Assembly: GCA_964435625.1 (NCBI GenBank)
Contig: CAYTAG010000006.1
Coordinates: 1-42,624 of the forward strand
Reading direction: 5' to 3'
Length of the DNA: 42,624 nucleotides
From: an uncultured Halobacteriales archaeon
GTDB lineage: Archaea > Halobacteriota > Halobacteria > Halobacteriales > PXRE01
Below are positions 3,007-42,615 of the stretch, piece after piece (the first letter of the stretch is position 1; the number at the start of each line of letters is the position of its first letter). The notes under the pieces were generated by a model. The model was given only the letters and a program-made list of their open reading frames with translations, searched no databases and had not been told where the DNA came from. A program made the position numbers and the translations under genes.

Positions 3007-3731
3007 TTGTCGCTCCCGCTCCCTTTGCCGGTTCGTCGGGAGGAGATGTCACCCACCTTCCGGCCCGGCGGCGCGTTCTTCGAGACGCTCTTGGGCCGGC
3101 CGGGGTGCTGGCGGCCACCACCACCGAACGGGTGGTCGACCGCGTTCATCGCCACGCCACGGACCCGGGGCCAGACGGTGCCCCGGCCCTTCACCTTGTG
3201 GTACTTGTTGCCGGCCTTGACGAACGGCTTCTCCGTCCGTCCGCCGCCGGCGACCACGCCGATGGTGGCGCGGCAGTCCGGGTTCAACCGCTTGATCTCG
3301 TCGCTGGGCAACTGGACGACGGCCGCGTCCCGGTCGTGGGTGATCAGCGTGGCGCTGACCCCCGACGCCCGGGCGTACTTGCCGCCGTCGCCCGGCTGGG
3401 CCTCGACGTTGCACACCGGGACGCCCTCCGGAATCTCCGCCAGCGGGAGGGTGTTGCCCGGCTCGATTGCCGCCGAGATGCCGACCTGAAGGTCGTCGCC
3501 GACGGCGACGCCCTCGGCGGCCAGCACCAGTCGGCGCTCGCCGTCCTCGAACTCGACGGCGGCGATGGGCGCCGACCGGGCGGGGTCGTGCTCGACGTCG
3601 ACGACCGTCCCCGTGACGACGTCGCTGTCCTCGACGCTGCGATGCTTCTTGTCCGACTTGTAGCGGTGCGACGGCGCCCGGAACGTCGAGCCGCCGCGGC
3701 CGCGTCGTTGTCCTCTGATTCTCCGTCCCAT
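3003..3731 (-). CDS. rpl2: 50S ribosomal protein L2 (uL2)
   Basis: True start [14 protein letters not shown] at 3731; [23 protein letters not shown]. Confidence 0.97.
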
Positions 3732-11023: not shown

Positions 11024-11163
11024 TGGCGGGTCCTCGGCCGGGCGCGTCTTGTTCGTTGTCGTCTGCTTTGGAGGGGACGGGGCCGGGTGGTGGCTTTCTC
11101 GGCGCTTCCTCGGAGACGACTGCTCGGAGGGCCCCCGCGCTCTCTTCGAACGGCATTTTGGTC

Positions 11164-11330
11164 GCCACCGCCCGGAAAGCCCCCGCGTGCTCGACTTCCG
11201 TCAGGGACGAGCTATGAGGACTTCCCGCTCGGTTTCCGGCGGGAACGGCTCCAGCGAGCGAGAGCGACGCTCTCGCTGGGTCGCTCGCACGGCTCGCGGG
11301 GACCTCGCGCGCGTTGCTCGCGCGCGTCAC
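11164..11330. repeat. Haloarchaeal GC-rich palindromic intergenic element
   Basis: Stacked hairpins TTCCCGC/GCGGGAA, CGAGAGCG-A-CGCTCTCG and CGCGCG/CGCGCG after GAAAGCCCCCGC. Confidence 0.45.
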
Positions 11331-11446
11331 AACTATTGCGTGGGACCAATCGGCCCGTCAGTTTTGTGCACCGCTCGGACCCTCCCCCGGCATCGCCGTC
11401 GGGCCGAACTGCCAAACCCTTTGACGCGGGCCGCCGAACCCCGGGT

Positions 11447-12379
11447 ATGGACAGCCTCAACCGGATGGCCATCGAACTGGTCGACGAGGCGCTGGACTTC
11501 GCCGACGAACTGAACGTGGCCGTCCACGAACTCGACGACGAGGCGACGGTGCTTGACTTCGGCGTCGAGGTCGAGAGCGGGATCGAGGCCGGGCTGCTCC
11601 TCGCGGAGATCCAGACCGCCGGGTTGGCTACCCTCCAGGCCCGAACCGAGGCGGTCGCGGGCACCCCCCGCCCGGTCGTCGAACTGACGACCGACCACCC
11701 CGGGCTGGCACTCCTGGGCAGCCAGAAGGCCGGCTGGGAACTCGCGGTCGAGGGGTTCGAGGGGCTGGGGTCCGGCCCGGCCCGCGCGCTGGTCGGCGTC
11801 GAGGAGGAGTACGACCGCATGGGCTACCGCGACGACTTCGACCTCACCGCGCTGGCCGTCGAGTCGGCCGAACTCCCGGACGAACGGGTCGCCGAACACG
11901 TCGCCGAACGGGCGGGCGTCGAACCCTCCGCGACCTTCCTGCTGGCGTACGCGACCGGCAGCGTCGCCGGCAGCGTCACCGCGGCCGCCCGCGCCGCCGA
12001 ACTCGCGGTCTTCCGGCTGTCGGAACTCGGCTACGACCCGACCGAGGTCGTCACCGCCACGGGGAGCGCCCCGGTCGCGCCCGTCAGCTACGACGAGGCG
12101 ACCGCCATCGGCCGGACGACCGACGCCGTCGCCTACGGGGGCCAGGTCCACCTCCAGGTCGGCGCCGACTTCGACCGCTTCGACGAGGTGCCCTCCTCGG
12201 CCGCCACGGAGTACGGCCGTCCGCTGGTCGAGGTGTTCGAGGAGGCCGACTGGGACTTCGAGGCGCTCCCCGAGGATCTGGTCGGCCCCGCCGAGGTCAC
12301 GGTCGACGTGCTCGGCGGCCCGACCTACGCGCTGGGCGACCGCAGCGAGGATGTCCTCGCCGAGAGCTTCGACCTGTGA
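11447..12379 (+). CDS. mch: Methenyltetrahydromethanopterin cyclohydrolase
   Basis: MDSLNRMA..., LGSQKAGW, GSGPARAL, GRTTDAVAYGG. Confidence 0.9.
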   Translation: MDSLNRMAIELVDEALDFADELNVAVHELDDEATVLDFGVEVESGIEAGLLLAEIQTAGLATLQARTEAVAGTPRPVVELTTDHPGLALLGSQKAGWELAVEGFEGLGSGPARALVGVEEEYDRMGYRDDFDLTALAVESAELPDERVAEHVAERAGVEPSATFLLAYATGSVAGSVTAAARAAELAVFRLSELGYDPTEVVTATGSAPVAPVSYDEATAIGRTTDAVAYGGQVHLQVGADFDRFDEVPSSAATEYGRPLVEVFEEADWDFEALPEDLVGPAEVTVDVLGGPTYALGDRSEDVLAESFDL

Positions 12380-12864
12380 TGCGCCTCAAACCGATCCCCG
12401 AGGCCCCGAACGACCTGGAGGTCGTCGAGCGAGCCCAGCGTGCAGTCCCGCTGGTGCCCGGGAGCGAGGACGACTGCTGTGCGCGCCTGCTGCGGCGGAT
12501 CGACCTGGAGAGCCGCGACGAGGCCCGGACGTGGCTGACGTTCCTGCGGACGCTCGGTCTCGTCGAGAAGGGGACGAACGGGTTCACCCGGACCCGGACC
12601 GACGTCGAACGGGACCCGCTGGCGTCGGCGTTCCGCGAGCGCGTCTTCGGCGCCCGCGAGGTGCTCGACGCGATGGCGGCTGCGGACGGCCCACTGGCAC
12701 CCGACGGGGCCTTCGAGGCGGTCGAGCCGGCGATCCCCGAGTGGGAGCGCAACAAGAACGCCTGGCAGCGGACCTGGCGCGAGCGGGCCCGGCGGCTGCT
12801 GGCCTGGACAGCGTTGCTGGGGCTGGCCGAGCGCGTCGACGGCGGCTACCGGCCCCACCGATAG
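12379..12864 (+). CDS. Conserved haloarchaeal hypothetical protein (winged-helix-like)
   Basis: Translationally coupled to mch; VPLVPGSEDDCCARL, RTWLTFLRTLGL. Confidence 0.7.
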   Translation: MRLKPIPEAPNDLEVVERAQRAVPLVPGSEDDCCARLLRRIDLESRDEARTWLTFLRTLGLVEKGTNGFTRTRTDVERDPLASAFRERVFGAREVLDAMAAADGPLAPDGAFEAVEPAIPEWERNKNAWQRTWRERARRLLAWTALLGLAERVDGGYRPHR

Positions 12865-12967: not shown

Positions 12968-13468
12968 ATGAGTAGTGACCACTCCGACGACCGGGACGTC
13001 GTGGCGGAGTACGATGCGGACGAAGACGGGATGAAGCCCAACCCCCGCGAGCAGGGGAAGTGGATCTCCGGGCTGGTCGCGCTGATCGGCGCGTGGATGA
13101 TCGCCGCGCCGTTCGTGTTCGAGACCATCTGGCCTGCCCAGTTCGAACTCCTGGAGGCCCACTTCTGGAGCGACGTCATCGTCGGACTCGCGCTGCTGGT
13201 GCTGGGGGGCTACAACTACTACCGGCGTAGCGACGAGCGGCTCGCCAACTCCGGCGTCGCCATGCTGATCGCGCTGCTCGGGCTGTGGATGATCGCCACC
13301 CCGTTCGTGTTCGGGATCGAGGGGGCCGACGTCGGCATGGACGTGCTGGCGGACGGTGACCTCATGGCCTGGAACGACGTGCTCCTGGGCCTGGTGGTGT
13401 TTCTCCTCGGTGCCTATAGCGCCTACGAGGCGAGGGACACGGGAACCACTCGCCCCGCCCGGACATAG
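12968..13468 (+). CDS. SPW-repeat membrane protein
   Basis: Two GxW(M)IAxPFVF...W(S/N)DV repeats. Confidence 0.75.
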   Translation: MSSDHSDDRDVVAEYDADEDGMKPNPREQGKWISGLVALIGAWMIAAPFVFETIWPAQFELLEAHFWSDVIVGLALLVLGGYNYYRRSDERLANSGVAMLIALLGLWMIATPFVFGIEGADVGMDVLADGDLMAWNDVLLGLVVFLLGAYSAYEARDTGTTRPART

Positions 13469-13595
13469 TCGCCGGCCCCAGTCACCACAGTTTTTCAGTG
13501 CGAGGACGCGTCCGTAGCGTCGTCCGTCCCGGGCGCCTCGACCCGTCCATCGGTGCCACGTCAGGTACAAAGGGACAACCCCCCAAGGGGCCGTG

Positions 13596-14241
13596 ATGAG
13601 CGGGAGCCAGTTCCCGGGTCCCGGGTTCCTGGATCCAGGCGTCAGTACGGCCGTCCGCGAGGCAGTGCCACCGTGGCTGGTACCGGCGTTCGTGGCGATC
13701 ACGTTCCTGGGGAACGCCGGCTTCTACCTGGCGGCGTTCTCGCTCGATTACTGGTTCGGCGACCACGAGCGCGGCGCGCACGCGCTCGGCGTTGCGCTGG
13801 GCGGCATGGCGCTCGTCGTCGCCCTCAAGGCGCTGTTCGCCGAGCCGCGGCCGCCCGAGGCCGGTCGCCTCGTTGAGGCCACCGGGTACAGCTTCCCGAG
13901 CGGGCACGCGACCGGTGCGGCGGTCGCCTACGGCGTCCTCGCGTTCGACCTGAGGATGGGGTCCCGACGGACCCGGTTCGCGGTCGCGGGGGTGCTCGTC
14001 GCGCTGATCGCCCTCTCGCGGGTGGTCCTGGGCGTGCACTTCGTCCGCGACGTCGTCGCGGGCGTCGTCGCCGGCGGCGTTTTCCTCGCGGTCGCAATCG
14101 TCGTCACCGAACACGCTCCCCGCCCCGGGTTCTTCCTCGCCGTCGGGGTCGGCCTGGTCGCGGCGGTCCTCAGCGGCGCGAGCACCGACGGCGATGGCGG
14201 CGATCCTGGCGGCGCCGCGGGTCGTGGAACGGATCGACTGA
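13596..14241 (+). pseudogene. PAP2-family phosphatase with frame-disrupted C-terminus
   Basis: KALFAEPRP, SFPSGHA, SRVVLGVHFVRDV intact. After GASTDG the frame runs into the opposite-strand gene, while a plausible end (AMAAILAAPRVVERID*) lies in another frame and stops at 14241. Confidence 0.65.
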
Positions 14242-28646: not shown

Positions 28647-30308
28647 TCACATACTTTCCGTTAATTCGATCCCGAGAAGGTCCATGTATCTCCGAAGGAC
28701 CAGTATAGTGACCGAGACGATCGACAACCGCTTCCGTTCCTCATCACTTCCGACGATTTGATACTCGCTGTAGTAGGAATTGAACGTGTTCGCTAGATCG
28801 AAAGCCTCGCCAGCGATCACGCTCGGTTTTGATTTTGAGGCTGCCTCCGATACCGTCATATCGAACCTGATCAACTTATCGAGTATTTTTTGCTCCTGCT
28901 CGTTCGGATCGGACATCGGTTCGACACGCAGGTCGCTCTCGGCGTTCTCTAACAGGGACATACAACGCGAGTGCGTGTACTGGAGATACGGACCGGATTT
29001 CCCTTCGAACGAGAGGACCTGATCCCAGTCGAACGTCGAATCTGTTTCACGAGATCCCGACAACCAGGAGAACTTGATCGCGCTAATGCCGACTCTGGTG
29101 GCTGCCTCCTCCTCGTTCTCGACCTCGCCCTCTCGCGATTCGATAATCGACTTGACGCGGTCGATTGACTCCTGAATGAGATCTTCAGCCCTGACGATTC
29201 TGCCCTCTCTGCTCGACATTTGCCCGTCCTCGAGACTCATCAGCCCGTAATTGACGTGTTCGCAACGGTCCGGGTCACAGATTCCCAGCAATTCCGCACT
29301 CTTGAATAGCTGTTTGAATCGATGCCGCTGCTCGTTTCCGACCACGTAGAGGACCTTTTCCGGATCGTACCTATCGATTCGGTGTCGAAGGGCCGCTAAA
29401 TCCCGAGTGGCGTAGTTCGTCGTGCCGTCCGACTTACGGATGATCATGTTCGTGAGACCGTACTCTTCGAGTTCGACAATTATCGCTCCCTCACTTTCCG
29501 TCGCGATGCCCTCCTCGAGCGCTTCCTGAACGATTTTCTGCCCCTCGTATACGAATTCGGATTCCCCCGAAATATTTTCGAATTCCACGCCCAAGATGTC
29601 GTATATATCATTAAATTCCTCGATGCTAATCTCACGAAACATGCTCCAGGTCTCCCTTTTCTCCTCGTCCCTGTTTTCGAGTTCCTGGAACCACTTCCGG
29701 GCCTCCTCCTCGAGCGATGGGTCGTCCTCGGCCCTCTCATGAAACTGGACGTACAACTCGTATAATGAATCGATTTTTTTCTCCCGAATGGTTTCTATAT
29801 CCCCCCATTCTTCGAACGCGACTCCGAGTTTGCCAAACTGAGTCCCCCAGTCGCCCAGGTAATTAATTCCGGCGACGTCGTATCCCAGATGTGTGTATAT
29901 CCGTTTCAGTGAGTCCCCGATTATCGTAGTCCCCAGGTGACCGATGTGCATAGGTTTGGCAACGTTAGGAGACGAGTAATCGATTACAATCGTCTCGCCA
30001 CTATCGGGATCCCCGTCCAGCTGTTCGAGGAATCTATCGACGTTTTGACCGACGTAGTCCCAGTCGAGATCGATGTTGACGTACTGACGGCTACTGCTTA
30101 CGGATTCGACCGGATCGTATCCCCTCAATCTCTCAGCTAAGATATCACTTAGTTCCGAGGCGATCGCCGTCGGATCCTCACCCAGCGTGAAACACGGAAT
30201 TGCGATGTCCGCGTAGTCGGATTCCTCCTCGAAAGATAGTTCCGAACCATCTATCCTCTCAGGTATTTCCTCCCTAACCTTTCCCTCAACGTCCGAGATG
30301 ATGGTCAT
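28647..30308 (-). CDS. argS: Arginyl-tRNA synthetase, probably a horizontally acquired paralog
   Basis: DYSSPNVAKPMHIGH, NYLGDWGTQFG, KSDGTTNYATRD, MSSREG, GPYLQYTHSR; markedly lower GC than flanks. Confidence 0.9.
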   Translation of the reverse strand: MTIISDVEGKVREEIPERIDGSELSFEEESDYADIAIPCFTLGEDPTAIASELSDILAERLRGYDPVESVSSSRQYVNIDLDWDYVGQNVDRFLEQLDGDPDSGETIVIDYSSPNVAKPMHIGHLGTTIIGDSLKRIYTHLGYDVAGINYLGDWGTQFGKLGVAFEEWGDIETIREKKIDSLYELYVQFHERAEDDPSLEEEARKWFQELENRDEEKRETWSMFREISIEEFNDIYDILGVEFENISGESEFVYEGQKIVQEALEEGIATESEGAIIVELEEYGLTNMIIRKSDGTTNYATRDLAALRHRIDRYDPEKVLYVVGNEQRHRFKQLFKSAELLGICDPDRCEHVNYGLMSLEDGQMSSREGRIVRAEDLIQESIDRVKSIIESREGEVENEEEAATRVGISAIKFSWLSGSRETDSTFDWDQVLSFEGKSGPYLQYTHSRCMSLLENAESDLRVEPMSDPNEQEQKILDKLIRFDMTVSEAASKSKPSVIAGEAFDLANTFNSYYSEYQIVGSDEERKRLSIVSVTILVLRRYMDLLGIELTESM

Positions 30309-30903: not shown

Positions 30904-30980
30904 ACAGGTCGTGATGCGTACGACCCCTTCGCCGCGGTGGGCGGGCGGTGTGGGCCGTCTCGCGGGGTTCCGTGAGACCC

Positions 30981-31976
30981 ATGCCGACGGACCGAGACGA
31001 ACTGGAACCCATCGATCCGCGCACCGCGCAGCAACTGTACCTCGACCACAAGGCCACCGAGTGCACCGAGTCGACGGTCAGGAATCACAAGTACCACACC
31101 AACTACCTCGTCGAGTGGTGCGAGGCGAACGGCGTCGACAACCTGAACGACCTGACTGGTCGGGACCTCCAGCAGATCCGGCTGTGGCGCAAGGAGGTCG
31201 GCGACATCAACCTCCTGACGTTGAACAATCACATGAGCACGTTGCGGGTGTTCCTGAAGTGGGCCGCGTCCATCGAGGCCGTCCCGGAGAACCTCTACGA
31301 CAAGGTGATGGTGCCGCGCGTGTCGCCGGAGGACGAACAGGCCGACGAGACGCTGGATAGCGAGAGCGCGCAGGCGATTCTGGATCACCTGTCGACGTTT
31401 CATTACGCGTCGCTGGAGCACGTCCTACTGGCGTTGCTCTGGGAGACGGGGATGCGGATCGGCGCGGCCCGGTCGCTGGACGTCGGCGACGTGGACGTCG
31501 ACGGGGAGCGCGTCGAACTCGTTCACCGGCCCAGCGAGGGGACGACGCTGAAGAACGGCAGTGGTGGCGAGCGGCCAATTGCGATCAGTCCAGACCTGGC
31601 GGGCGTGCTGGACGATTACGTCGGGAGTGTACGCCACGACGTGACCGACGAGTACGGGCGCGAGCCGCTGTTCACGTCCGAGCAGGGGCGGCTGAGTCGG
31701 AGTACGTTGCGTCGAGTGGTGTACAAAGTGACGGCCCCCTGTTTTCGGAACGAGCCTTGCGCCGAGTGTGCTGACGGCGAGTCGAAGTGCGGTGAGGCGG
31801 TGAGTCCTCACGCGATCCGGCGAGGAAGTATTACGCACTACCTGGCGAACGACGTGCCCGTGGAGATCGTGAGTGATCGGATGAACGTGAGTCGGAAGGT
31901 GCTGGACGAGCACTACGATCAGCGGTCGGAGGAGGTGAAACTGGAGCAGCGGCGGGGGTATCTCGAAGAGGTGTAG
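30981..31976 (+). CDS. Tyrosine recombinase/integrase (haloarchaeal SNJ2-like)
   Basis: GMRIG, LKNG, PHAIRR, HYD catalytic residues. Confidence 0.92.
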   Translation: MPTDRDELEPIDPRTAQQLYLDHKATECTESTVRNHKYHTNYLVEWCEANGVDNLNDLTGRDLQQIRLWRKEVGDINLLTLNNHMSTLRVFLKWAASIEAVPENLYDKVMVPRVSPEDEQADETLDSESAQAILDHLSTFHYASLEHVLLALLWETGMRIGAARSLDVGDVDVDGERVELVHRPSEGTTLKNGSGGERPIAISPDLAGVLDDYVGSVRHDVTDEYGREPLFTSEQGRLSRSTLRRVVYKVTAPCFRNEPCAECADGESKCGEAVSPHAIRRGSITHYLANDVPVEIVSDRMNVSRKVLDEHYDQRSEEVKLEQRRGYLEEV

Positions 31977-32988: not shown

Positions 32989-34044
32989 TCAGAGAGACGA
33001 GTATTCGTCAAGACATTTCTCCAATTCGTCTCGCCGCCGCTCTGCCTTCCGCTCCTTGGACCGCTGATCGTAATGCCGCTTCAGCACAGGTACGGAAACG
33101 TCGACCCGACCGCTCAACAGCTCCACCGGCACGCCTTTGTCCAACTGCCGCATGATGGCCCACTTCCGGAGCGGATGCGGACTGAACGACGACGGACATT
33201 CACTTGCGTTCGTACTTTCCGCCGCCGAACACGACGAGATCTCCCGTCCGTGCGGACACTCATCCGCAGACGTACACGGCCGCGTCATCTTGTAGAAGTC
33301 CCGCCGGATCGTCGGCAAAGACACCCGGCCTGATCCCGTCGTCAGCAATGACTCCCGACCGAACGTGTCGATGACCGATTCACGAGGTCCGTCTACGTAA
33401 TCACTGAGTAGTTCCTGAAGATCGTCCGAGACATTGACGATACGCTCACTGTCGCGCCCGTTCTTCAACGGCGTCCCGTACTCGTCCGTCCTTTCAGGCC
33501 GATGCCGCAAGTGCACCTGCGCGGCGTCGAAATCTACGTCCTCCAGATCGATAGCGCGAATAGCGCCCATCCGCAGACCGATCTCGGCAATTAGTTCGAA
33601 TTCGAGGTGGTGCCGGGCCGCGTACTCGAACTTCCCGTGGTAGGTTCGGACGGCCGCAACGGCCTCGTCGTCGGGCACCTCGTCACACACCTCCTCGTCC
33701 GGCGCCACGTTTGGGAACGGAATCTTCTCACTGAGGTCGGGCTCGACCGCGTCGATGGCCTCGCAGAACTCCAGGAACGGCCCGAGGACGCCGAGCGCGC
33801 CGTTGAGACTGACCGTGTTCACGCCAGTCTCCTCTTTCCGCCAGTTCTTGAACCGCAGCAGGTCCCGGCCACCGAGGTCGTTCAGGTTCTCGATGCCGGC
33901 CTGGTCGGTCCAGTCGACGAAGATGCCCAGCGCCGAGGCGTGCTTGCGCCGGGTCGCCACCCGCGTGTCGTCCTGGCGGTGCTCCAGGTACAGCCGGCGG
34001 GCCTCCGCGGGCGACAGCGGCTCCAGGCTCACGTCCTCGCGCAC
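32989..34044 (-). CDS. Second tyrosine recombinase/integrase
   Basis: GLRMG, LKNG, PHPLRK, HYD; the GTG start at 34044 is approximate. Confidence 0.9.
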   Translation of the reverse strand: MREDVSLEPLSPAEARRLYLEHRQDDTRVATRRKHASALGIFVDWTDQAGIENLNDLGGRDLLRFKNWRKEETGVNTVSLNGALGVLGPFLEFCEAIDAVEPDLSEKIPFPNVAPDEEVCDEVPDDEAVAAVRTYHGKFEYAARHHLEFELIAEIGLRMGAIRAIDLEDVDFDAAQVHLRHRPERTDEYGTPLKNGRDSERIVNVSDDLQELLSDYVDGPRESVIDTFGRESLLTTGSGRVSLPTIRRDFYKMTRPCTSADECPHGREISSCSAAESTNASECPSSFSPHPLRKWAIMRQLDKGVPVELLSGRVDVSVPVLKRHYDQRSKERKAERRRDELEKCLDEYSSL

Positions 34045-34106
34045 CTCGGTGGTCCCTGTTGCGGCCCGTAACCTCTTAGTGGATACGTGGTAACCAGGAA
34101 GCAACT

Positions 34107-35605: not shown

Positions 35606-38600
35606 ATGGACCAACGGGTTTCGGGGGCCGTCGCGGTCGCCATGGCGGTGCTGGTGGTGACGGGGACAATCGGCCCAGCACTGGCCGCGGGTGGTTTCGG
35701 TGAGCAACGGCAGTCGAATGTCGTCGATCCGTCGGTCGTCTTCAGCGACGACGGGGCGGCGCTCGATCACCGGCTCCACGCCTACCGGATTCTCGATCAA
35801 GCAGACGCACAGCGCCACCTCGACGCGCTGAACGCGACGTTCGAGCACGTCGTCGACGAAAATCGCGTGAACGCGAGCCAGGTGTTTGCCACGGACAAGC
35901 GCATCGTCGCCCAGACACAGGCGCACCGCCCGGACGTCGGCGAACAACTGGTCGCCTCCGACCGCGTACTGGCCGAGACCGTAGTCGCCGACGCCCAGCG
36001 CGTCCGCGAGGGGATGGATCGCCGGAACCTCTCCTACGACGAAGCAGCCGTCAACGAAAGGCTGGCGAACGCCAGTGCGGCGCTCCAGCAGGGCCACAAC
36101 CACGTCGCGGGTAACGCCTCGCTCGTGGCGGCCGTCGAGTCGTACCACCGCGCCTGGCGGCACGCCCAGCGCGCGATGGATCTGATGCAGGCCGCGGTCG
36201 AGCCCCAGGTCGAGATCACCCGGCGGACGGACCCACCGCACAACGGGACCATCGAGTACACCGTGAAGGGCGTCGTCTGGGACGTCCGCTCGCACCGGAT
36301 GGCCGGAACGCTGACGCTCAACGGCGAACAGCGGAGCCTCGCGCTCGATACGTCCACGGTCCCCGGCGAGAACGTGACGTTCTCGACGACCGTCACACTG
36401 GAGGAGAAACGCAACTGGATCAACGTCTCGGTCTCGAATCCGCTGGAGTACGTCGATTACAGTCGGCGACCAGCGACGCCCGGCGGGCCAGGGAACGGCC
36501 AGCAGGGCAATGGTCCGCAGGGCCCCTCGAACGGGAACGAGACGGGACCGCCGGACGACCGGCCAGGAGGGCCACCTGACGACAGAGGAGCAGGGCCGCC
36601 AGATGGCAAAGGCGGAGGCCCGCCGGATGACAAGGGAGGGGGACCGCCAGATGAGAGGGGAGAAGGCCCACCTGATGACAAAGGAGAAGGCCCGCCCGAC
36701 GATGCGGGCAACGGTCCCTCGGACGATCAGAGCCAGAATTCGTCGAAGGGAAGCGGGCAAGGACCACCGGACGAGCCCGGAAACGATGACCCTGCGAATG
36801 ACGGGGGAGACGGCTCCAGTGGCGAGGCAGGGCAAGGAAACGCAAGTGAGGGACAGCGTGGCGAGGGCAACCAAGGTACCGGGGCCGATGAGGAGACCGG
36901 CAACGGGGAGGGACCAGGAAAAGGATCGGACGCCGGGAGTGGCTCCGCCAACGACTCCAGCGGGGCCGAGACGAACGGCAATAACGAAAGCGATGGTGGG
37001 GAAAACAATGCCGGACCCAGTAACGGGTCGTCGAACAGCTCTGGCGGCCCAGGGAACGGCCAGGGGAATGCCAACGCGCTCGCCAACGACCCCGGGAGCT
37101 GGTCTTCGACGAGTCCCAGGGCAGGCCACGGGTTCGGTGGCGTGGACACGATGGCCTACGGGGCCATGCTGGCTCCGCCCGAATCCGATGCGGTGCAAGT
37201 CGGTTTCGACGTCCTGAAGCTAGACGCCGACGGCCTCCCGGACCGCTACGAGGAGACCGTCGTCGGGACGGATCCGCTCGATACCGATAGCGACTCGCGG
37301 CTTACCGCCCGCAACGAGTCCGACGTCGGAACTATCGACGGGGCGAAGGACTTCGACGTGGACGGGCTGGCGACCTACCAGGAGTACCGGATCGGGACGG
37401 ATCCGCTGTCGAACGACACGACCGGCGACGGTCTCGAAGACGGCTTCCAGGTGCTGGTCGTCGGAACGGATCCGCTCGTCAACGACACCGACGGCGACGG
37501 GGTGGCGGACGCCCAAGAGGATCCCGACGGTGACGGGTTGACGCTGCTCGAAGAGCAGGAACACGGGACCCATCCGCGACTAAACGATACCGACGGCGAC
37601 GGCCTGACCGACGGGGAGGAAGTCCACGAGTACGACACCGATCCGCTAGACCCGGACAGCGACGGCGACGGATTGCTCGACGGCGAGGAAATCCGTCTGG
37701 ACCAGGACCCGCTGGCTGCCGACTCGGACGGCGACGGCGTCCCGGACGGCAACGAGACGTACACCACGACGGTGACAAACGACTCCAGTGAGGTCACCGT
37801 GACGGCGACCGGCGAAGGCGTCGTCGCCGACGGCCTTCACGTCCGGCACACGCCGACGGACTACGGGGGCAACGTCACGGCCGGGCCGATGGTGCGGATC
37901 ACCAACGACACGGCCGTCGAGGGAGCCACGGTGACGATGCCCATCGACGAGGGTGTGGACCTATCGGCGACGAACGTGACGATCTACACCTGGGACCCCG
38001 ACGACGAAGGGTGGGTCCCCCTGGAGACGACGGTCGACGCCGGGAACCGCACGGCGAGCGCGACCGTCTCGTCGTTCTCGTACTTCGCGGTGATGGACGA
38101 AGGGGCGAGGACGAAGGCCACCAGCCAATATGCCCAACCGGGGTGGCCGGCCCTGGAGACGTTCGACGACCTCGCCGACTGGACGGCAAGTGGCAACGGG
38201 ACCGTCTCGCTCGACGACGAGGTGGTGACCGTCCAGAGCCAGGAGGGGACCTCCGGCGACGGCGGTGGTGGCAACGACGGGAGTGGCGGTGACGACGGCG
38301 GTTCCGGGGGTAGCGGCGGCGGGGATTACGAACCGTACGACGAGAACTGGGAACTCCCGGGCACCGGCCCGGGTGGCAACGACGGCGACGACGGTGATGG
38401 TGGCGATGGTAGCGACGACGACGGGGACAGCGGCGACGGTGGTGGCAGCGAAGACGGGAGCGGTAGCGGTGGGAACGACGGAAGCGGCGACGACGGAAGC
38501 GGCGGCGGGGACAGTGGAGGGGACGGCGGGAGCGACGATGGATCGGGGGACGGCGACGGAACGAGCGGTCCCACGAACGCGTCCATCTCTCGGACGGTTT

Positions 38601-40861
38601 CGCTCCCGGAGACGACCGCGTCCATTGCGATCCAGGTGCGAGTGAAGGCCACGACGGGCGGCGTCGGCACGGCCGAAGTCGTCCTGGTGGGTGGTGGCGC
38701 CAGCGCGCAGGTCCTCGACCTGGGATATGGCGAAACGACGGATGGCTGGGTGACCCGCCGGATCTCGCCGGCCGCGGGGTCGTTCGCGGGCGAAGAGGCC
38801 ACGCTCACCGTGCGGACCGAGGGCAACGCGACCGTCCAGGTCGAGTACGTCGCGGTGGTGATCGACTCGACGGGCAGCGGCCTACCCGACGCGGTCGAGC
38901 GCCTGGACCTCCGGATGCCGACCGGCGGTCCCGGGGTCGCACACACGCTCCTTGACTTGGACCCGTCCCTGGCGGACACTGACGGTGACGGGTTGCGCGA
39001 CGGCGAAGAAGTGGACGTCGCCTGGGAGATCGTCCCCGACGCGGGGGAGTGGACGCTGTACGGCGAGGCCGTCGACGCCACCTCCCATCCCGGGCGGGTC
39101 GACACCACGGGCGACGGCCTCACCGACTCCCAGCAGGTCGAGGGGTGGTCGATCCGGGTCGTCGACGAGCACGACGACGCCACGGCGCTGATGGACGTGG
39201 TGAACGACCCCGACGCCGACGAGAACGTCTCGCCGTTCTTCGAGACGCGGTCGGTGACGGCGAACCCGCTGGTGAACCACACCGACGACGATGGGCTGAG
39301 CGACGCCAGGGAGTTCGCGCTCGGGACGGACCCCGGGCGGGAGGATACCACCGGCGACGGGATCGACGACGACGAGGCGCTGGCGCTGGAGACCGAGGAC
39401 CCGACGGTGTTCACGACGACCGGGCCGGAGGCGAGGCTGCTGTGGTACAACCAGGCGTCGGAGATCACCCTCACGGACCTGAAGTGGTACTTCCAGTACC
39501 GTTACAAGGTCGAGGATTCGGTCGGCATCCGGGAGTTCGAAATCTCGCGGCAGGGCACGACGTTCGACAGTGCCGCGGGCGGGAGGGCGAACGAAGTGTA
39601 TCGTACCAGTACGCGCGAATCGTTCATGGAGGGGGCGTTCACGGTCCTGCGCGGGTCGGTCGCGGTCGTCGAGGCAACCGACGTCTACGGGAATACCCGC
39701 AAACAGGTGCTCTATAGCCAGACTTCGTCGTTCGGCCACGCGCTGAAGGACGTGTCGCCGCTGGGCGCCGGGATGGTCTCGGGGGCCAGTCACTTCGCCG
39801 CGGAACTGCCCGAGTTCATCTGGCTGGCCATCACGGATCCGTTCGGGGTCTACGACGCCTTCAAGTCGTTCGTGGGCCAGCTCGGGCCCGATCTCATCGA
39901 GTTGCTGATCGAGAGCGTCCAGCGGACCCAACACCTCGACAACCCCTTCAACGAGAACCCCGACTCCGAGGAGTACAAGGAGTACGAACGCGGGTGGTAC
40001 GTCGGCTACGGGGCGCTGGCGGTCGCCGAGCTCGCACTGGGCCTGAAGGCGCTGAAAGGGATCGCGAGCGTTTCCAAACTGAAACAAACGTTGCAGACGA
40101 CGGCGAACCGCGTCGACGAGGTTAAGGCGCTGGTGAAGTCGGGAATGCCCCGGAAGACGGCGAAGATTACGAGGGAAGCTACGGATGGTGGTCCAGGTAG
40201 GGATTATACTCGGTTGGTGAGGGACCTCGAAACGGCGGGTGCAGTGAAGAACGTAAAACAGCTTGCCAAGGATATCGGACCTCGGTTCGAAGATCTGGAG
40301 CCGTCACATCCCCAACTTGGAACGTTCCTGCAGAAATACGGGGACAACGGCGTCGAGGTTATCAATAAACTGGATGATGCCTTTGATGCACACCCATTGC
40401 TGGGCGCTCCCGATGAGATTACCAACCGAATCATCCAAATGACTGCCGATTTCGACGTCAATCCGAGTGCGTTGATTCGCGTCGTTGACAAGGGCCATAA
40501 TCTTAAACGACTCGAAGAGTTACTCCGGACCAAAGCATCGGGAAGATGGACGGCTGGCCGACCTGGTGATCGAAACGCAAACTTCAACAAGCATTACTCG
40601 GACCACGCTCAAGAATGGAGTCCACCCTTGAGCAAGTCAGAATACAGGAGCAAGGCAAGAACCCTTGCAAACCAGAGAGACGGCGTTGAGATATATTACC
40701 AGATCGGGCAAGATCCATCGAATTTGATCGTGTATAACCGTGCTGCTAACGAGTTCGTGACACTTAATGCGAAAGGTGAGATTCAAACGTTCCACAGACC
40801 CAACCCTGGGCAGGTCGGGAAGTTAGTTAGGAATGGAAACGCAATACCGATCAAAACATAA
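35606..40861 (+). CDS. Large secreted polymorphic-toxin-like protein with DxDxDG repeats and a C-terminal RNase-like toxin domain
   Basis: Sec-type signal ending GPALA; GPPDD repeats; many DTDGDG(L) Ca-binding repeats; hydrophobic pre-toxin helices; low-GC tip KHYSDH...EY...YN...NEF...GEIQTFHRP. Confidence 0.8.
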   Translation: MDQRVSGAVAVAMAVLVVTGTIGPALAAGGFGEQRQSNVVDPSVVFSDDGAALDHRLHAYRILDQADAQRHLDALNATFEHVVDENRVNASQVFATDKRIVAQTQAHRPDVGEQLVASDRVLAETVVADAQRVREGMDRRNLSYDEAAVNERLANASAALQQGHNHVAGNASLVAAVESYHRAWRHAQRAMDLMQAAVEPQVEITRRTDPPHNGTIEYTVKGVVWDVRSHRMAGTLTLNGEQRSLALDTSTVPGENVTFSTTVTLEEKRNWINVSVSNPLEYVDYSRRPATPGGPGNGQQGNGPQGPSNGNETGPPDDRPGGPPDDRGAGPPDGKGGGPPDDKGGGPPDERGEGPPDDKGEGPPDDAGNGPSDDQSQNSSKGSGQGPPDEPGNDDPANDGGDGSSGEAGQGNASEGQRGEGNQGTGADEETGNGEGPGKGSDAGSGSANDSSGAETNGNNESDGGENNAGPSNGSSNSSGGPGNGQGNANALANDPGSWSSTSPRAGHGFGGVDTMAYGAMLAPPESDAVQVGFDVLKLDADGLPDRYEETVVGTDPLDTDSDSRLTARNESDVGTIDGAKDFDVDGLATYQEYRIGTDPLSNDTTGDGLEDGFQVLVVGTDPLVNDTDGDGVADAQEDPDGDGLTLLEEQEHGTHPRLNDTDGDGLTDGEEVHEYDTDPLDPDSDGDGLLDGEEIRLDQDPLAADSDGDGVPDGNETYTTTVTNDSSEVTVTATGEGVVADGLHVRHTPTDYGGNVTAGPMVRITNDTAVEGATVTMPIDEGVDLSATNVTIYTWDPDDEGWVPLETTVDAGNRTASATVSSFSYFAVMDEGARTKATSQYAQPGWPALETFDDLADWTASGNGTVSLDDEVVTVQSQEGTSGDGGGGNDGSGGDDGGSGGSGGGDYEPYDENWELPGTGPGGNDGDDGDGGDGSDDDGDSGDGGGSEDGSGSGGNDGSGDDGSGGGDSGGDGGSDDGSGDGDGTSGPTNASISRTVSLPETTASIAIQVRVKATTGGVGTAEVVLVGGGASAQVLDLGYGETTDGWVTRRISPAAGSFAGEEATLTVRTEGNATVQVEYVAVVIDSTGSGLPDAVERLDLRMPTGGPGVAHTLLDLDPSLADTDGDGLRDGEEVDVAWEIVPDAGEWTLYGEAVDATSHPGRVDTTGDGLTDSQQVEGWSIRVVDEHDDATALMDVVNDPDADENVSPFFETRSVTANPLVNHTDDDGLSDAREFALGTDPGREDTTGDGIDDDEALALETEDPTVFTTTGPEARLLWYNQASEITLTDLKWYFQYRYKVEDSVGIREFEISRQGTTFDSAAGGRANEVYRTSTRESFMEGAFTVLRGSVAVVEATDVYGNTRKQVLYSQTSSFGHALKDVSPLGAGMVSGASHFAAELPEFIWLAITDPFGVYDAFKSFVGQLGPDLIELLIESVQRTQHLDNPFNENPDSEEYKEYERGWYVGYGALAVAELALGLKALKGIASVSKLKQTLQTTANRVDEVKALVKSGMPRKTAKITREATDGGPGRDYTRLVRDLETAGAVKNVKQLAKDIGPRFEDLEPSHPQLGTFLQKYGDNGVEVINKLDDAFDAHPLLGAPDEITNRIIQMTADFDVNPSALIRVVDKGHNLKRLEELLRTKASGRWTAGRPGDRNANFNKHYSDHAQEWSPPLSKSEYRSKARTLANQRDGVEIYYQIGQDPSNLIVYNRAANEFVTLNAKGEIQTFHRPNPGQVGKLVRNGNAIPIKT
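36547..36730 (+). repeat. Intragenic 24-bp tandem repeats encoding GPPD(D/G/E)(R/K)xx
   Basis: GPPDDRPG GPPDDRGA GPPDGKGG GPPDDKGG GPPDERGE GPPDDKGE GPPDDAGN. Confidence 0.85.
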
Positions 40862-40868
40862 CATAAAC

Positions 40869-41465
40869 ATGGATAATAGACAAGAAGAGTTGGAATCCAG
40901 GCTTGACCATACCATCAATCAATTCAAAGAGATGTTGTCTGAGTTAGAGAAAATAACTGATGTATACGAAATCGAGACGTACGATCGAATTACCGTCGCG
41001 ACCACGATCTATCTTTCATATGAGTGTGAATTTCTGCTCGAAGAACTTCGCAAAGCCAATGAAGCGTCCGAATCCACGAGTCATACCTTCGCATCATTGC
41101 AAGAGTTACTAGATCATCTACTGGACCAGAAGTCATACCGAGAACAAGCAATCAAAGAACTGAAGACCAGGGTTGATAACTATCCGAGAAACATTTGCCA
41201 TTTTCTCGAATTAGATCCCATCTCCATCGAGTTAGAAAATACTCTTAGTGGACGGGACGTCATCCAGGTACTTCTTTTAGAACTCGAGGAAGACGAGTTA
41301 GACAATGAACGTGAGAAAGTTAATGCACTCGATGAAGTCCTTAGATGTCGATATGAGGTCCAGATCGAGACGATATTAGACGAATATAGTGATATCGAGA
41401 AATCATACTATCCGGGGTCGTTCTGGTGGCGACATCCCTCAGATGTCGCGGCTGAACTCGACTGA
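40869..41465 (+). CDS. Putative cognate immunity protein
   Basis: Starts 7 bp after the toxin stop; same low GC; acidic and helical; ends YYPGSFWWRH. Confidence 0.65.
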   Translation: MDNRQEELESRLDHTINQFKEMLSELEKITDVYEIETYDRITVATTIYLSYECEFLLEELRKANEASESTSHTFASLQELLDHLLDQKSYREQAIKELKTRVDNYPRNICHFLELDPISIELENTLSGRDVIQVLLLELEEDELDNEREKVNALDEVLRCRYEVQIETILDEYSDIEKSYYPGSFWWRHPSDVAAELD

Positions 41466-41561
41466 GTGGATTGAGTTGTCTGTCTCGCCTCCGGCGCCCA
41501 AGAGATCAATGGTGTCTCCGGTGCCGCAGAATTCGACAGCCGACTGTCGCGAGTGTTCGCT

Positions 41562-42475
41562 TATATCGACGAGGTCGGCCCGCTGATCAAAGCCGGGGCG
41601 AACCGGAAGACGGCGAAGATCACCCGGCAGGCGGTCGGGGACGGTGGTTCCCTCGACGTCGATTATACAGCGGTCGCGGGTAAATTGGGTGATCAGGGCT
41701 TCCAGGCGGGGAAACTTGACGAGGCGATCACGCGGTTGAGCCAAATCGACAGCCGGCACCTCCGGGCGCTGTCGCCCGACGACCAGGCGCGGCTGGCGGC
41801 GCGGTTGGTAAGCGTCCGGGACGGCGGGCAGGTCCGACGGTTCGTGAACGCGCTCGACGAGACGAGCGACGTCCGGCGGGTGCTTGAGGGGGACGTCCCA
41901 GCAACCAAGCGGATGAGCCGGTTGTGGGCGAACAAGGACAAGACGTCGGGAAGGATCAACGGATTACGGTACCGCCACGTCGATCCCGATCTTGAAGCCA
42001 GTGACTTCGTTCAAATTGCCCAGCAGGTGGAGTTGAAAAACACCCAGTTAATTGTCAAGCGAGGGGATGAACTTCGCTTCTTACAAAGAGGCACATTAGA
42101 GGAGGGCTGGAAGCACATTAAAGTCCGCCACATAGAGGCCTCATACAAATTAGATGCAAAAGAGGGTACAAGTTTCTTCCCGCTCGGCCGGACCGTGAAG
42201 GGTAATAAACTTCCAGATACTATGACGAAAGGCGAGGTGAAGATATGCTCTATGATGCAATTAAAGATGGTCATCCGTCACCTCAGGGCCAAAAGACCAA
42301 ATATTACTTCCAGCCGAAACAAAATGGGTATCCTGATAGTGGAATCGTCGACATGAGGATTTTCGTGTTACCAGACGGAATGATCGAAACTGCGTACCCA
42401 CTTAGCGGAGAGGCTGTCAAAAAGTGGGTTCCTGAGTTGAATGATGGACAAGGTGGACTGGTGGATACTGTATGA
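41562..42475 (+). pseudogene. Orphan alternative toxin C-terminal module (EndoU/BECR-like RNase), frameshifted near 42241
   Basis: Begins IDEVGPLIKAGANRKTAKITRQAVGDGG (homologous to the main-protein junction); GWKHIKVRH...TSFFP, then IETAYP in a shifted frame. Confidence 0.7.
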
Positions 42476-42615
42476 GTACAAAACACGTGTTTCAAGCGGC
42501 GGAGATCGAGTTCCAGTTTGATCAAAAGTATCAGGAGCGAGTAATGCAAGCCAAGCCAGATAGCTGGATAGGGCCTTGTTTAGACGCTCGGACTTTTGCA
42601 GTCCGAGGCTTGTAG
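42472..42615 (+). CDS. Probable orphan immunity gene, likely interrupted
   Basis: ATGA overlap with the orphan toxin stop; MSTKHVFQAAEIEFQFDQKYQERV..., ends after 47 codons just past a putative IS end. Confidence 0.45.
   Translation: MSTKHVFQAAEIEFQFDQKYQERVMQAKPDSWIGPCLDARTFAVRGL

Follow-up and report, generated by a model that had tools for sequence, protein, structure and literature searches.

A probable body-tip junction in a haloarchaeal polymorphic toxin locus

Rhs polymorphic toxins combine a constant body, a short boundary motif and a variable toxin tip with a downstream immunity gene and displaced orphans. The locus described here lies in a stretch of 42,624 nucleotides (nt) from an uncultured Halobacteriales archaeon (GenBank assembly GCA_964435625.1, contig CAYTAG010000006.1), referred to below as the window. 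It is a predicted polymorphic toxin system, in which a hypervariable tip is carried on a conserved body and is accompanied by a linked immunity gene and by downstream orphans. An 18-nt sequence is repeated exactly within the locus, and its copy in the main gene probably marks a junction, J1, between the constant body and an exchangeable C-terminal cassette of a haloarchaeal polymorphic toxin.

For CdiA-CT, part of one account (PMC9424206) states that the VENN motif delimits the tip and that cleavage after VENN is required for delivery. The tip is described there as a helical cytoplasm-entry domain, of at least 29 families, joined to a transfer RNA nuclease (tRNase) of the BECR fold (barnase-EndoU-colicin E5/D-RelE). 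A passage of another study (PMC7662968) reports that conserved sequence on the upstream side of VENN persists in orphan CdiA-CT modules, which are believed to undergo recombination with the full-length gene. A more general template, in which a leader, repeats and a pre-toxin domain precede the toxin and cassettes include immunity genes, is laid out in parts of Zhang et al. 2012 (PMC3482391), which also present classical polymorphic toxins as rare in archaea and mention haloarchaea with PVC-delivered toxins. Polymorphic toxins are well studied in bacteria, and in archaea they are so far a matter of prediction. A passage of a 2021 paper (PMC8416519) notes that the archaeal systems that Makarova et al. 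2019 had predicted lacked experimental characterization. Experimentally shown haloarchaeal toxins are linked to a contractile injection system in an excerpt of PMC11566945. No description of the present family or of its junction was found in a literature search outside of which Makarova et al. 2019 lies.

The junction, the cassette and the orphan

The window is an entire contig, one of 383 in a metagenome-assembled genome that is 83.8% complete. Only three genomes make up the taxonomic family of this genome, and relatives of the locus are found in haloarchaeal genomes of the same order. The features of the locus, with lengths in amino acids (aa), are as follows.

35606..40861, + strand: main polymorphic-toxin gene, product P0001, 1751 aa (open reading frame (ORF) and translation)
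39404..40192, + strand: conserved pre-toxin core, aa 1267-1529 (profile search and AlphaFold)
40151..40192, + strand: junction J1 (RKTAKITREATDGG), holding the repeat copy 40150-40167, a composition break and low model confidence
40193..40522, + strand: linker A, all-helical, about 110 aa, with the signature DIGPRFEDL..SH.QLGTFL (model helices 278-378)
40523..40858, + strand: toxin A, a 112-aa alpha/beta domain (AlphaFold, VIA-align, Foldseek)
40869..41465, + strand: putative immunity gene A, 198 aa, acidic (pI 4.4), about 42% guanine-plus-cytosine (GC), 7 nt past the toxin stop (linkage)
41478..41648, + strand: 5' end of the orphan, 42 constant-region codons and J1' (RKTAKITRQAVGDGG, 41604-41648), containing the repeat copy 41603-41620
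41649..41981, + strand: linker B, of the ...ID.RHL..LS..Q..LAARL type, native-like in composition up to 41981
41970..41993, + strand: junction J2 (YRHVD/PDL, the slash marking the break), the border between linker and toxin, with a composition change point at 41982
41982..42475, + strand: orphan toxin B, frameshifted, in the frame of 41478 to about 42239 and then in the frame of 42245-42475
42472..42615, + strand: ORF of 47 aa behind toxin B (tblastn); the contig ends at 42624

The repeat, CCGGAAGACGGCGAAGAT, occurs on the + strand in two exact copies at 40150-40167 and 41603-41620, as an earlier sequence-only reading of the window had reported, and the two peptide contexts quoted there were also correctly read. 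No third copy with at most 2 mismatches is present in the window, the chance expectation being 0.00, and at least two matches were obtained in 0 of 100 shuffles. Extension without gaps yields a 67-nt direct repeat of 70% identity (40113-40179 and 41566-41632). Both copies encode RKTAKITR..DGG, one in the 1751-aa main protein and the other in a 5'-truncated orphan copy; homology between the two proteins extends farther in the upstream direction than had been noted in the sequence-only reading and begins at 41478, just past the preceding gene's stop codon (query residues 143-198 at 41% identity, E 2.1e-5). Within the 55 aa aligned before the junction 23 residues are identical, and the same codon is used at 12 of these, where the codon usage of the gene predicts 10.4 (P = 0.31). 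Agreement of all five RKTAK codons has a probability of 0.019, for a run chosen post hoc. The 18-nt DNA identity does not go beyond protein conservation and gives no sign of recent exchange, since it follows from a conserved eight-residue peptide and the codon bias of a GC-biased genome.

The composition of the main gene changes abruptly at the repeat. GC content at third codon positions (GC3) shifts at nt 40166, where the 18-nt repeat has its 3' edge: it is 0.91 in the 520 codons ahead of this change point and 0.54 in the 231 codons behind it (change in log likelihood (lnL) 61.9; 2-lnL support 40157-40175). Total GC content, 62-72% ahead of the repeat, is about 50% directly after it and 41-44% in the ORF that follows; it increases once more around 41470 and drops near 41950. 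In the orphan the GC3 change point lies at nt 41982 (support 41937-41991), at YRHVD/PDL, with a decrease from 0.81 to 0.53; this second break falls about 330 nt past DGG. On the basis of these change points the imported DNA of the main gene would start at J1, whereas the orphan would have kept a native-like linker with a tip joined at J2. Everything behind 40166, namely linker A, toxin A and the immunity gene, looks imported. A contig from sequencing run X1, probably of the same sample, spans 38023-42599 without differences.

P0001 begins with a hydrophobic N-terminal leader (MDQRVSGAVAVAMAVLVVTGTIGPALAAGG), the most hydrophobic 19-aa windows of which start at residues 4-14 as judged on sequence and hydropathy. 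Acidic low-complexity tracts and TSP3-type repeats follow, and then the pre-toxin core, J1, the helical linker and the toxin. TSP3_bac (E 1.5e-6) is the only Pfam match to the 1751-aa protein at E ≤ 0.1, NCBIfam recognizes CglD-like repeats at 621-731, and Pfam and NCBIfam searches of the protein, core, linker and toxins found nothing beyond the TSP3 repeats. The acidic tracts, with PPDD/GPPDD repeats and runs rich in G, S and D, lie at 36476-37165 and about 38320-38620 on either side of the TSP3 repeat regions, and are probably extended stalk spacers.

The pre-toxin core comprises a beta-sandwich (about 39428-39721), a helical part with a nearly invariant GWYxGY (39992-40009), a hydrophobic helix and a basic stretch ending in DGG. 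It has no Pfam match, even at E ≤ 10, and no NCBIfam model. The conserved stretch of about 40 aa that follows the helix has a net charge of +5 and a pI of 10.3 within an acidic protein. A transmembrane anchor was considered for the hydrophobic helix and dropped: the best 19-aa hydropathy window reaches 1.47, and relatives have E, H or S inside it. The tail behind the core is 222 aa long. An AlphaFold model of aa 1267-1751 (22 sequences; mean predicted local distance difference test (pLDDT) 69.4) places the beta-sandwich at model residues 9-106 and helices at 109-245; seven more helices occupy 278-378, a weak stretch lies at 376-395, and the C-terminal end is an alpha/beta domain. Another weak stretch, with pLDDT below 50, covers model residues 247-249 (GMP) and 251-265 (KTAKITREATDGGPG, the motif itself), corresponding to aa 1513-1515 and 1517-1531, and the J1 motif is presumably a flexible hinge in the modeled structure. 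A Foldseek search with the 485-aa model returned only weak Ig-, FN3- and C2-like rows, for the beta-sandwich.

Linker A belongs to a type that is also found in P0004, P0019, P0064/L039 and L046, and would be a candidate entry or translocation domain. Toxin A, folded alone by AlphaFold from 5 sequences, gives a model with pLDDT 88.2 and a predicted template modeling score of 0.81, consisting of helices at 21-31 and 38-49 and strands at 56-60, 67-72, 77-81 and 87-91. The best structural match is the CdiA-CT of E. coli O32:H37 (8ey4_A), for which VIA-align gives a Z of 10.4 and, across 85 aligned residues, a root-mean-square deviation of 2.7 Å, and Foldseek an E of 1.2e-3 at probability 1.00. The colicin D tRNase (5znm_B, 1tfk_A) matches at Z 7.7 with Foldseek probabilities of 0.97-1.00, and BrnT, toxins of the RelE/ParE/HigB type and more CdiA-CTs are among the further matches, the whole range running from Z 10.4 to 3.5. 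Identity in these structural alignments is 13-18%. In the model toxin A has the BECR fold, with helices followed by a four-stranded antiparallel sheet, and it is a predicted ribonuclease (RNase) toxin, a shared fold not being an activity. Residues H24, H28, E31, K38, R73 and T89 are invariant in the 5 toxin A sequences. Toxin A has no Pfam Colicin_D or EndoU match, even at E ≤ 10; protein-atlas features point, as a lead only, to colicin D, pyocin S and MafB cassettes (scores 0.87-0.88). Nothing was found by a sequence search of the PDB with the tail, and a metagenome scan contained 0 relatives of the tail protein.

Among the 401 genomes of the class sample toxin A occurs in 3, that is, in the window, as the main-gene tip of G246 and in an orphan of G007. 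A homologue of immunity A lies directly downstream of toxin A in all 3, as three tandem copies in G246 and one in G007. The downstream gene is thus a putative cognate immunity gene linked to toxin A; it passes the threshold of no Pfam or NCBIfam family. The tandem paralogues in G246 (locus L039) are at 1636-2208, 2299-2868 and 3080-3643, and a lone homologue stands behind a different toxin at 2918-3481 of L046 (G367, of the same genus as G246). The extra copies in L039 and L046 look like spare or orphan immunity genes.

The orphan frame opens at 41475, right after the stop of the ORF at 40869-41465, and homology starts inside the hydrophobic-helix region. The orphan aligns to the family profile past J1 (model 147-321, E 3.4e-27). 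The statement of the sequence-only reading that the two copies diverge after the repeat is accurate in that the linkers are of different types, but both copies still align to the profile for about 120 positions beyond the junction. Linker B is of a type also found in the L037 orphan, L038, L040, L043, L054, L057, P0014 and P0062. The J2 motif recurs as a pairwise change point in other genomes, as QYRNID/PDL and QYRHLD/PDL. Toxin B carries a 1-nt frameshift near 42239, where ...TKGEV is encoded in the frame of 41478 and (E)DMLYDAIKDG, as found in intact relatives, comes next in that of 42245; the X1 contig has the same sequence. Members of the toxin B family are P0005, P0014, P0062, L038, L040, L043, L050 and L057. 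Atlas features of P0062 suggest, as a lead only, BECR-type nucleases (PBECR/EndoU) and LXG toxin tips, and L050 has a weak EndoU_bacteria match (E 0.0041). The 47-aa ORF behind toxin B has tblastn matches directly behind toxin-B-type genes in L040/L011 (47% identity, 34 aa) and L057, and is probably the start or a remnant of the toxin B immunity gene.

Tip exchange across the haloarchaeal family

Relatives of the 263-aa core are numerous. Among 1.84 billion proteins 74 representatives were found at E ≤ 1e-3, of which 20 reach E ≤ 1e-10, and most have 220-460 more residues after the core. The N-terminal halves vary and include VWA domains, PQQ-type propellers, TSP3 repeats and beta-helix. The family profile matches 84 of the 401 genomes, in 37 of 91 genera, with Natronorubrum bangense and Halopiger djelfimassiliensis among the named carriers. 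In a phylum sample 9 of 301 genomes match, 2 of them outside the order; these two matches are at G478:C108:4529-5146 (E 2.4e-49) and G561:C1:997424-997933 (E 1.6e-29), about 254 such genomes having been sampled. A plasmid collection contained one weak match, annotated "hypothetical protein". A word-index protein search found no relative of the tail among near lengths and only the query for the core among longer lengths, with an index that seems too coarse.

In the family profile (429 positions) GWYxGY occupies 137-142 and is followed by the hydrophobic helix, RKTAKITR at 190-197 and DGG at 202-204. The junction of one clade reads [KRQ]T..[IV]..R...DGG, and another clade has ...APVRY..QLS(R/Q/N)GL in the same place. 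It had been proposed to search haloarchaeal genomes for the literal RKTAKITR.{3,4}DGG. The literal RKTAKITR is confined to the window: even an expression looser than it matches, among the 74 representatives, the window's protein only. The more permissive [KRQ]T..[IVLM].{3,8}DGG is present in 7 of the 74 representatives and in 12 of 74 aligned locus ORFs, 222-274 aa from the C-terminus. It stands upstream of 5 toxin clusters (17 tails, 14 of them unique), so that the motif in this looser form does precede variable domains in other genomes.

The exchange of tips behind J1 is seen in comparisons of close relatives. Identity in the 70 aa before J1 is at least 70% in 25 of 1596 pairs, of which 21 are at most 25% identical over the last 130 aa; some of the 25 pairs retain the linker, and others have lost it. 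Change points were located in a set of 42 members with 190 aa of upstream core, from which 20 pairs were chosen on the first 100 aa of core (at least 60% identity) and on unlike toxins. Counted in aa from the last G of DGG, they lie at -19, -10, +1, +11, +11, +15, +15, +37, +37, +38, +41, +41, +47, +53, +79, +108, +122, +137, +171 and +184, and none falls in the 170 aa upstream of -19. A set selected on the 70 aa before J1 agrees, the single one of its 24 rows at -59 being an alignment artefact. GC3 change points with a lnL change of at least 10 were obtained in 36 of 47 family ORFs; 12 are within -25 to +6 codons of J1, 11 within +70 to +125 and 13 elsewhere. DNA repeats shared by main gene and orphan touch J1 in 16 loci and have a boundary at most 30 nt from J1 in 8; other boundaries range from +60 to +115 nt or fall still later. 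G306 is an example: its 95-nt repeat (89.5% identity) stops 22 nt short of where the DGG codons end, and the proteins diverge exactly at (T/P)D(G/E)G.

Linkers and toxins also reassort with each other. The first 100 aa past J1 of 55 members fall into 5 clusters and the last 110 aa into 18; one linker cluster bears 13 toxin clusters, and one toxin cluster is found on 4 linker clusters. J1 is one of two main breakpoints and the most upstream exchange point, and J2, between linker and toxin, is the second. The proposal that the motif is an exchange site holds to the extent that J1 is one such site, but not the sole one. Its description as an analogue of the CdiA VENN boundary, a border between constant body and exchangeable tip, is borne out by the GC3 break at 40166 and by the distribution of breakpoints elsewhere. 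In this way composition and comparison suffice, by themselves, to place exchange junctions with a precision of a few codons.

At least two family matches are present in 28 of the 84 positive genomes, and 18 of 42 distinct loci contain extra truncated matches, some loci having been picked for several matches. Orphans retain from about 30 nt to almost the whole core upstream of J1. Two orphans of L005 (Natronorubrum bangense), at 11061-12509 and 13017-14078, keep a nearly full core (profile 17-380 and 6-169); they belong to the SNGL clade, unlike the main gene of that locus, and have in common a 477-nt repeat of 92.7% identity.

Proposed exchange and competing accounts of the motif

At J1 the native gene would have received a cassette of lower GC content, consisting of linker A, toxin A and immunity A. 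The gene's former tip would persist downstream as the 5'-truncated, frameshifted orphan, with 42 constant codons, its own J1 and linker B, and the orphan's toxin B would itself have been joined at J2. Such exchange may be driven by constant-region homology upstream of J1, carried by orphans or by incoming cassettes. J1, as a flexible hinge that separates folded modules, would then be the first position that tolerates chimeras. What the data show directly are the repeat, the composition breaks, the family, the distribution of breakpoints, the modeled toxin fold and the linkage of toxin and immunity gene; in which direction and order the events ran, as well as secretion, toxicity and any cleavage, is what we infer from the arrangement.

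Several observations weigh against this account. The window is a contig from a metagenome bin, and among the contigs of three sequencing runs no independent run bridges J1. A blastn comparison detects no repeat between main gene and orphan in the window, the two copies have just 18 nt identical, and their synonymous sites agree at chance level. Recent exchange between them is not visible, and for that reason the orphan as a displaced former tip is something we infer. A second large clade has SRGL or SNGL in place of DGG. The distance to DGG exceeds 10 aa for 17 of the 20 divergence points, and 24 of the 36 composition breaks are outside -25 to +6 codons of J1. These counts overstate independence because the genomes are kin and the pairs overlap, and hmmalign registers divergent clades imperfectly near J1, as in L074, where four repeat ends fall at -42 to -46 nt. 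None of 62 family tails matches a Pfam toxin family above its gathering score, with 6 weak nuclease-type matches among them; the structure model covers, among the toxins, toxin A alone; and the signal peptide of P0001 was assessed by sequence and hydropathy alone. Contigs of run X3, a third soil metagenome, contain parts of the core at 85-99% likeness and no cover of 40170-41254, at a depth below 1 that is too thin to interpret.

The motif might instead be foremost a processing site, with the DGG hinge cleaved, autocatalytically or by a protease, so that linker and toxin are freed, and with breakpoints clustering at DGG because a released cassette must be self-contained. This is compatible with exchange at J1, and as the foremost role of the motif it is a possibility that we hold only tentatively. 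D-G-G is retained in 23-24 of 27 unique motif contexts while the preceding residues vary; this count is partly circular, since the expression used to collect the contexts demanded [DE][GE][GT]. DGG also terminates an unlike upstream context, KSDGPARRVMTDGG, which suggests selection on the peptide itself; this context stands 262-291 aa ahead of the C-terminus in three of four carriers and 61 aa ahead of it in the fourth. That second context reads (V/E)(V/E)(L/M)AKSDGPA(R/K)(R/E).(M/V/A)(T/A)DGG and then (V/T/E)D.D(F/Y)R..(I/V)ARA. Its carriers are as follows.

L065, 3086-4024: second DGG context
L066, 3-2288: second DGG context
L071, 2841-4034 (reverse-complement coordinates): second DGG context
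L075, 3720-6047 (reverse-complement coordinates): second DGG context

The motif further lies in the stretch of lowest model confidence, presumably flexible, and the passage cited above makes delivery of CdiA-CT dependent on cleavage after VENN (PMC9424206). However, Pfam and NCBIfam find no protease or autoprocessing domain in the protein, and the second large clade does without DGG.

Alternatively, the motif could have no role of its own and simply be the end of the conserved core, in which case the composition shift would reflect constraints on the toxin part rather than foreign DNA. Its position within the basic conserved stretch behind the hydrophobic helix agrees with this, and selection on folding alone predicts breakpoints at domain borders. 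The fall in GC3 is nevertheless abrupt, with a support interval of 19 nt, and the low composition extends through the separate immunity gene. The orphan linker, homologous in type, retains high GC3, which shows that low GC3 is not intrinsic to linkers. Toxin A and immunity A moreover occur together on unrelated cores or orphans in the three genomes noted above, and an absence of any role is unlikely. Least probable of all is the suggestion of the sequence-only reading that the 18-nt identity is itself a recombination handle, on the view that it is kept at the nucleotide level for crossover between main gene and orphan: two exact copies are not expected by chance and the GC3 break is at the 3' edge of the 18-mer, but there is no synonymous excess and no blastn repeat, main/orphan repeats upstream of the motif in other loci are 95-705 nt long, the exact DNA junction pattern has 0 matches in other metagenome contigs, and the joint 40167/41620 is in no contig of the three runs, where rare forms would escape. 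The interpretation offered by that reading is, as a whole, partly supported.

Exchange of a cassette at J1 may also be placed in a wider and more speculative setting. The haloarchaeal family could represent a toxin-on-a-stick form of contact-dependent inhibition of its own, made from unrelated parts and following the two-tier logic of CdiA: a cut at DGG, a linker serving as an entry domain that hijacks a membrane protein of the target, a nuclease half, and J1 and J2 as independent sockets. Such a system is conceivable, though we would not presently expect it. If true, it would be a first tractable route for protein import into archaeal cells, with a natural kit of entry domains. The family in any case offers a way to approach both protein delivery into archaeal cells and the discrimination of kin in hypersaline communities, and fusions at J1 and J2, DGG mutants and toxin-immunity pairs are concrete constructs for tractable haloarchaea.

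Neighborhood and relation to described systems

Upstream of the toxin gene is an arginyl-tRNA synthetase gene.

28647-30308, - strand: arginyl-tRNA synthetase gene

Between it and the toxin gene are two tyrosine-recombinase-like ORFs, at 30948-31976 (+ strand) and 32989-34104 (- strand), with Phage_integrase matches of E 2.1e-11 and 3.7e-4. The toxin locus may lie in or beside an integrated element.

The family is marked by a pre-toxin domain that lacks a Pfam or NCBIfam model; it is common in haloarchaea and carries predicted RNase tips resembling those of bacteria. Toxin A shares with colicin D a fold of two helices and four strands and, in its own sequences, has the invariant residues His24 and His28; unlike colicin D, it gives no sequence match to Pfam Colicin_D.

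The locus resembles Rhs toxins in its constant body, boundary motif, variable tip, immunity gene and orphans. P0001 has no RHS/YD repeats (Pfam, NCBIfam), no DPxGL at the junction and no aspartyl autoprotease signature.

The likeness to CdiA extends further. Both have a large surface stick and a conserved pre-toxin region that closes in a short motif, followed by a helical domain of few types, an RNase of the BECR fold (predicted in the present case) and an immunity gene. In both, as far as the cited passages on CdiA go, 5'-truncated orphan cassettes have conserved sequence upstream of the motif, and the middle domain and the toxin reassort independently. In structure, toxin A comes closest to a CdiA-CT (8ey4_A). 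Unlike CdiA, the present system is found in an archaeal host, with a single membrane, an S-layer and no outer membrane, and its core is a beta-sandwich with helices and GWYxGY, closing in ...KT..I..R..DGG (or ...SRGL) and not in VENN. A TPS domain, FHA repeats and a PT-VENN domain were not detected by Pfam in the main protein, nor was a CdiB partner detected, the upstream ORFs being those named above. The locus is not a member of CdiA or Rhs, because none of their defining domains is present. It follows, with a putative leader and a predicted toxin, the general layout of the template set out in the cited parts of Zhang et al. 2012, and in contrast to the rarity reported there, it belongs to a classical stalked family that occurs in about a fifth of the sampled Halobacteria.

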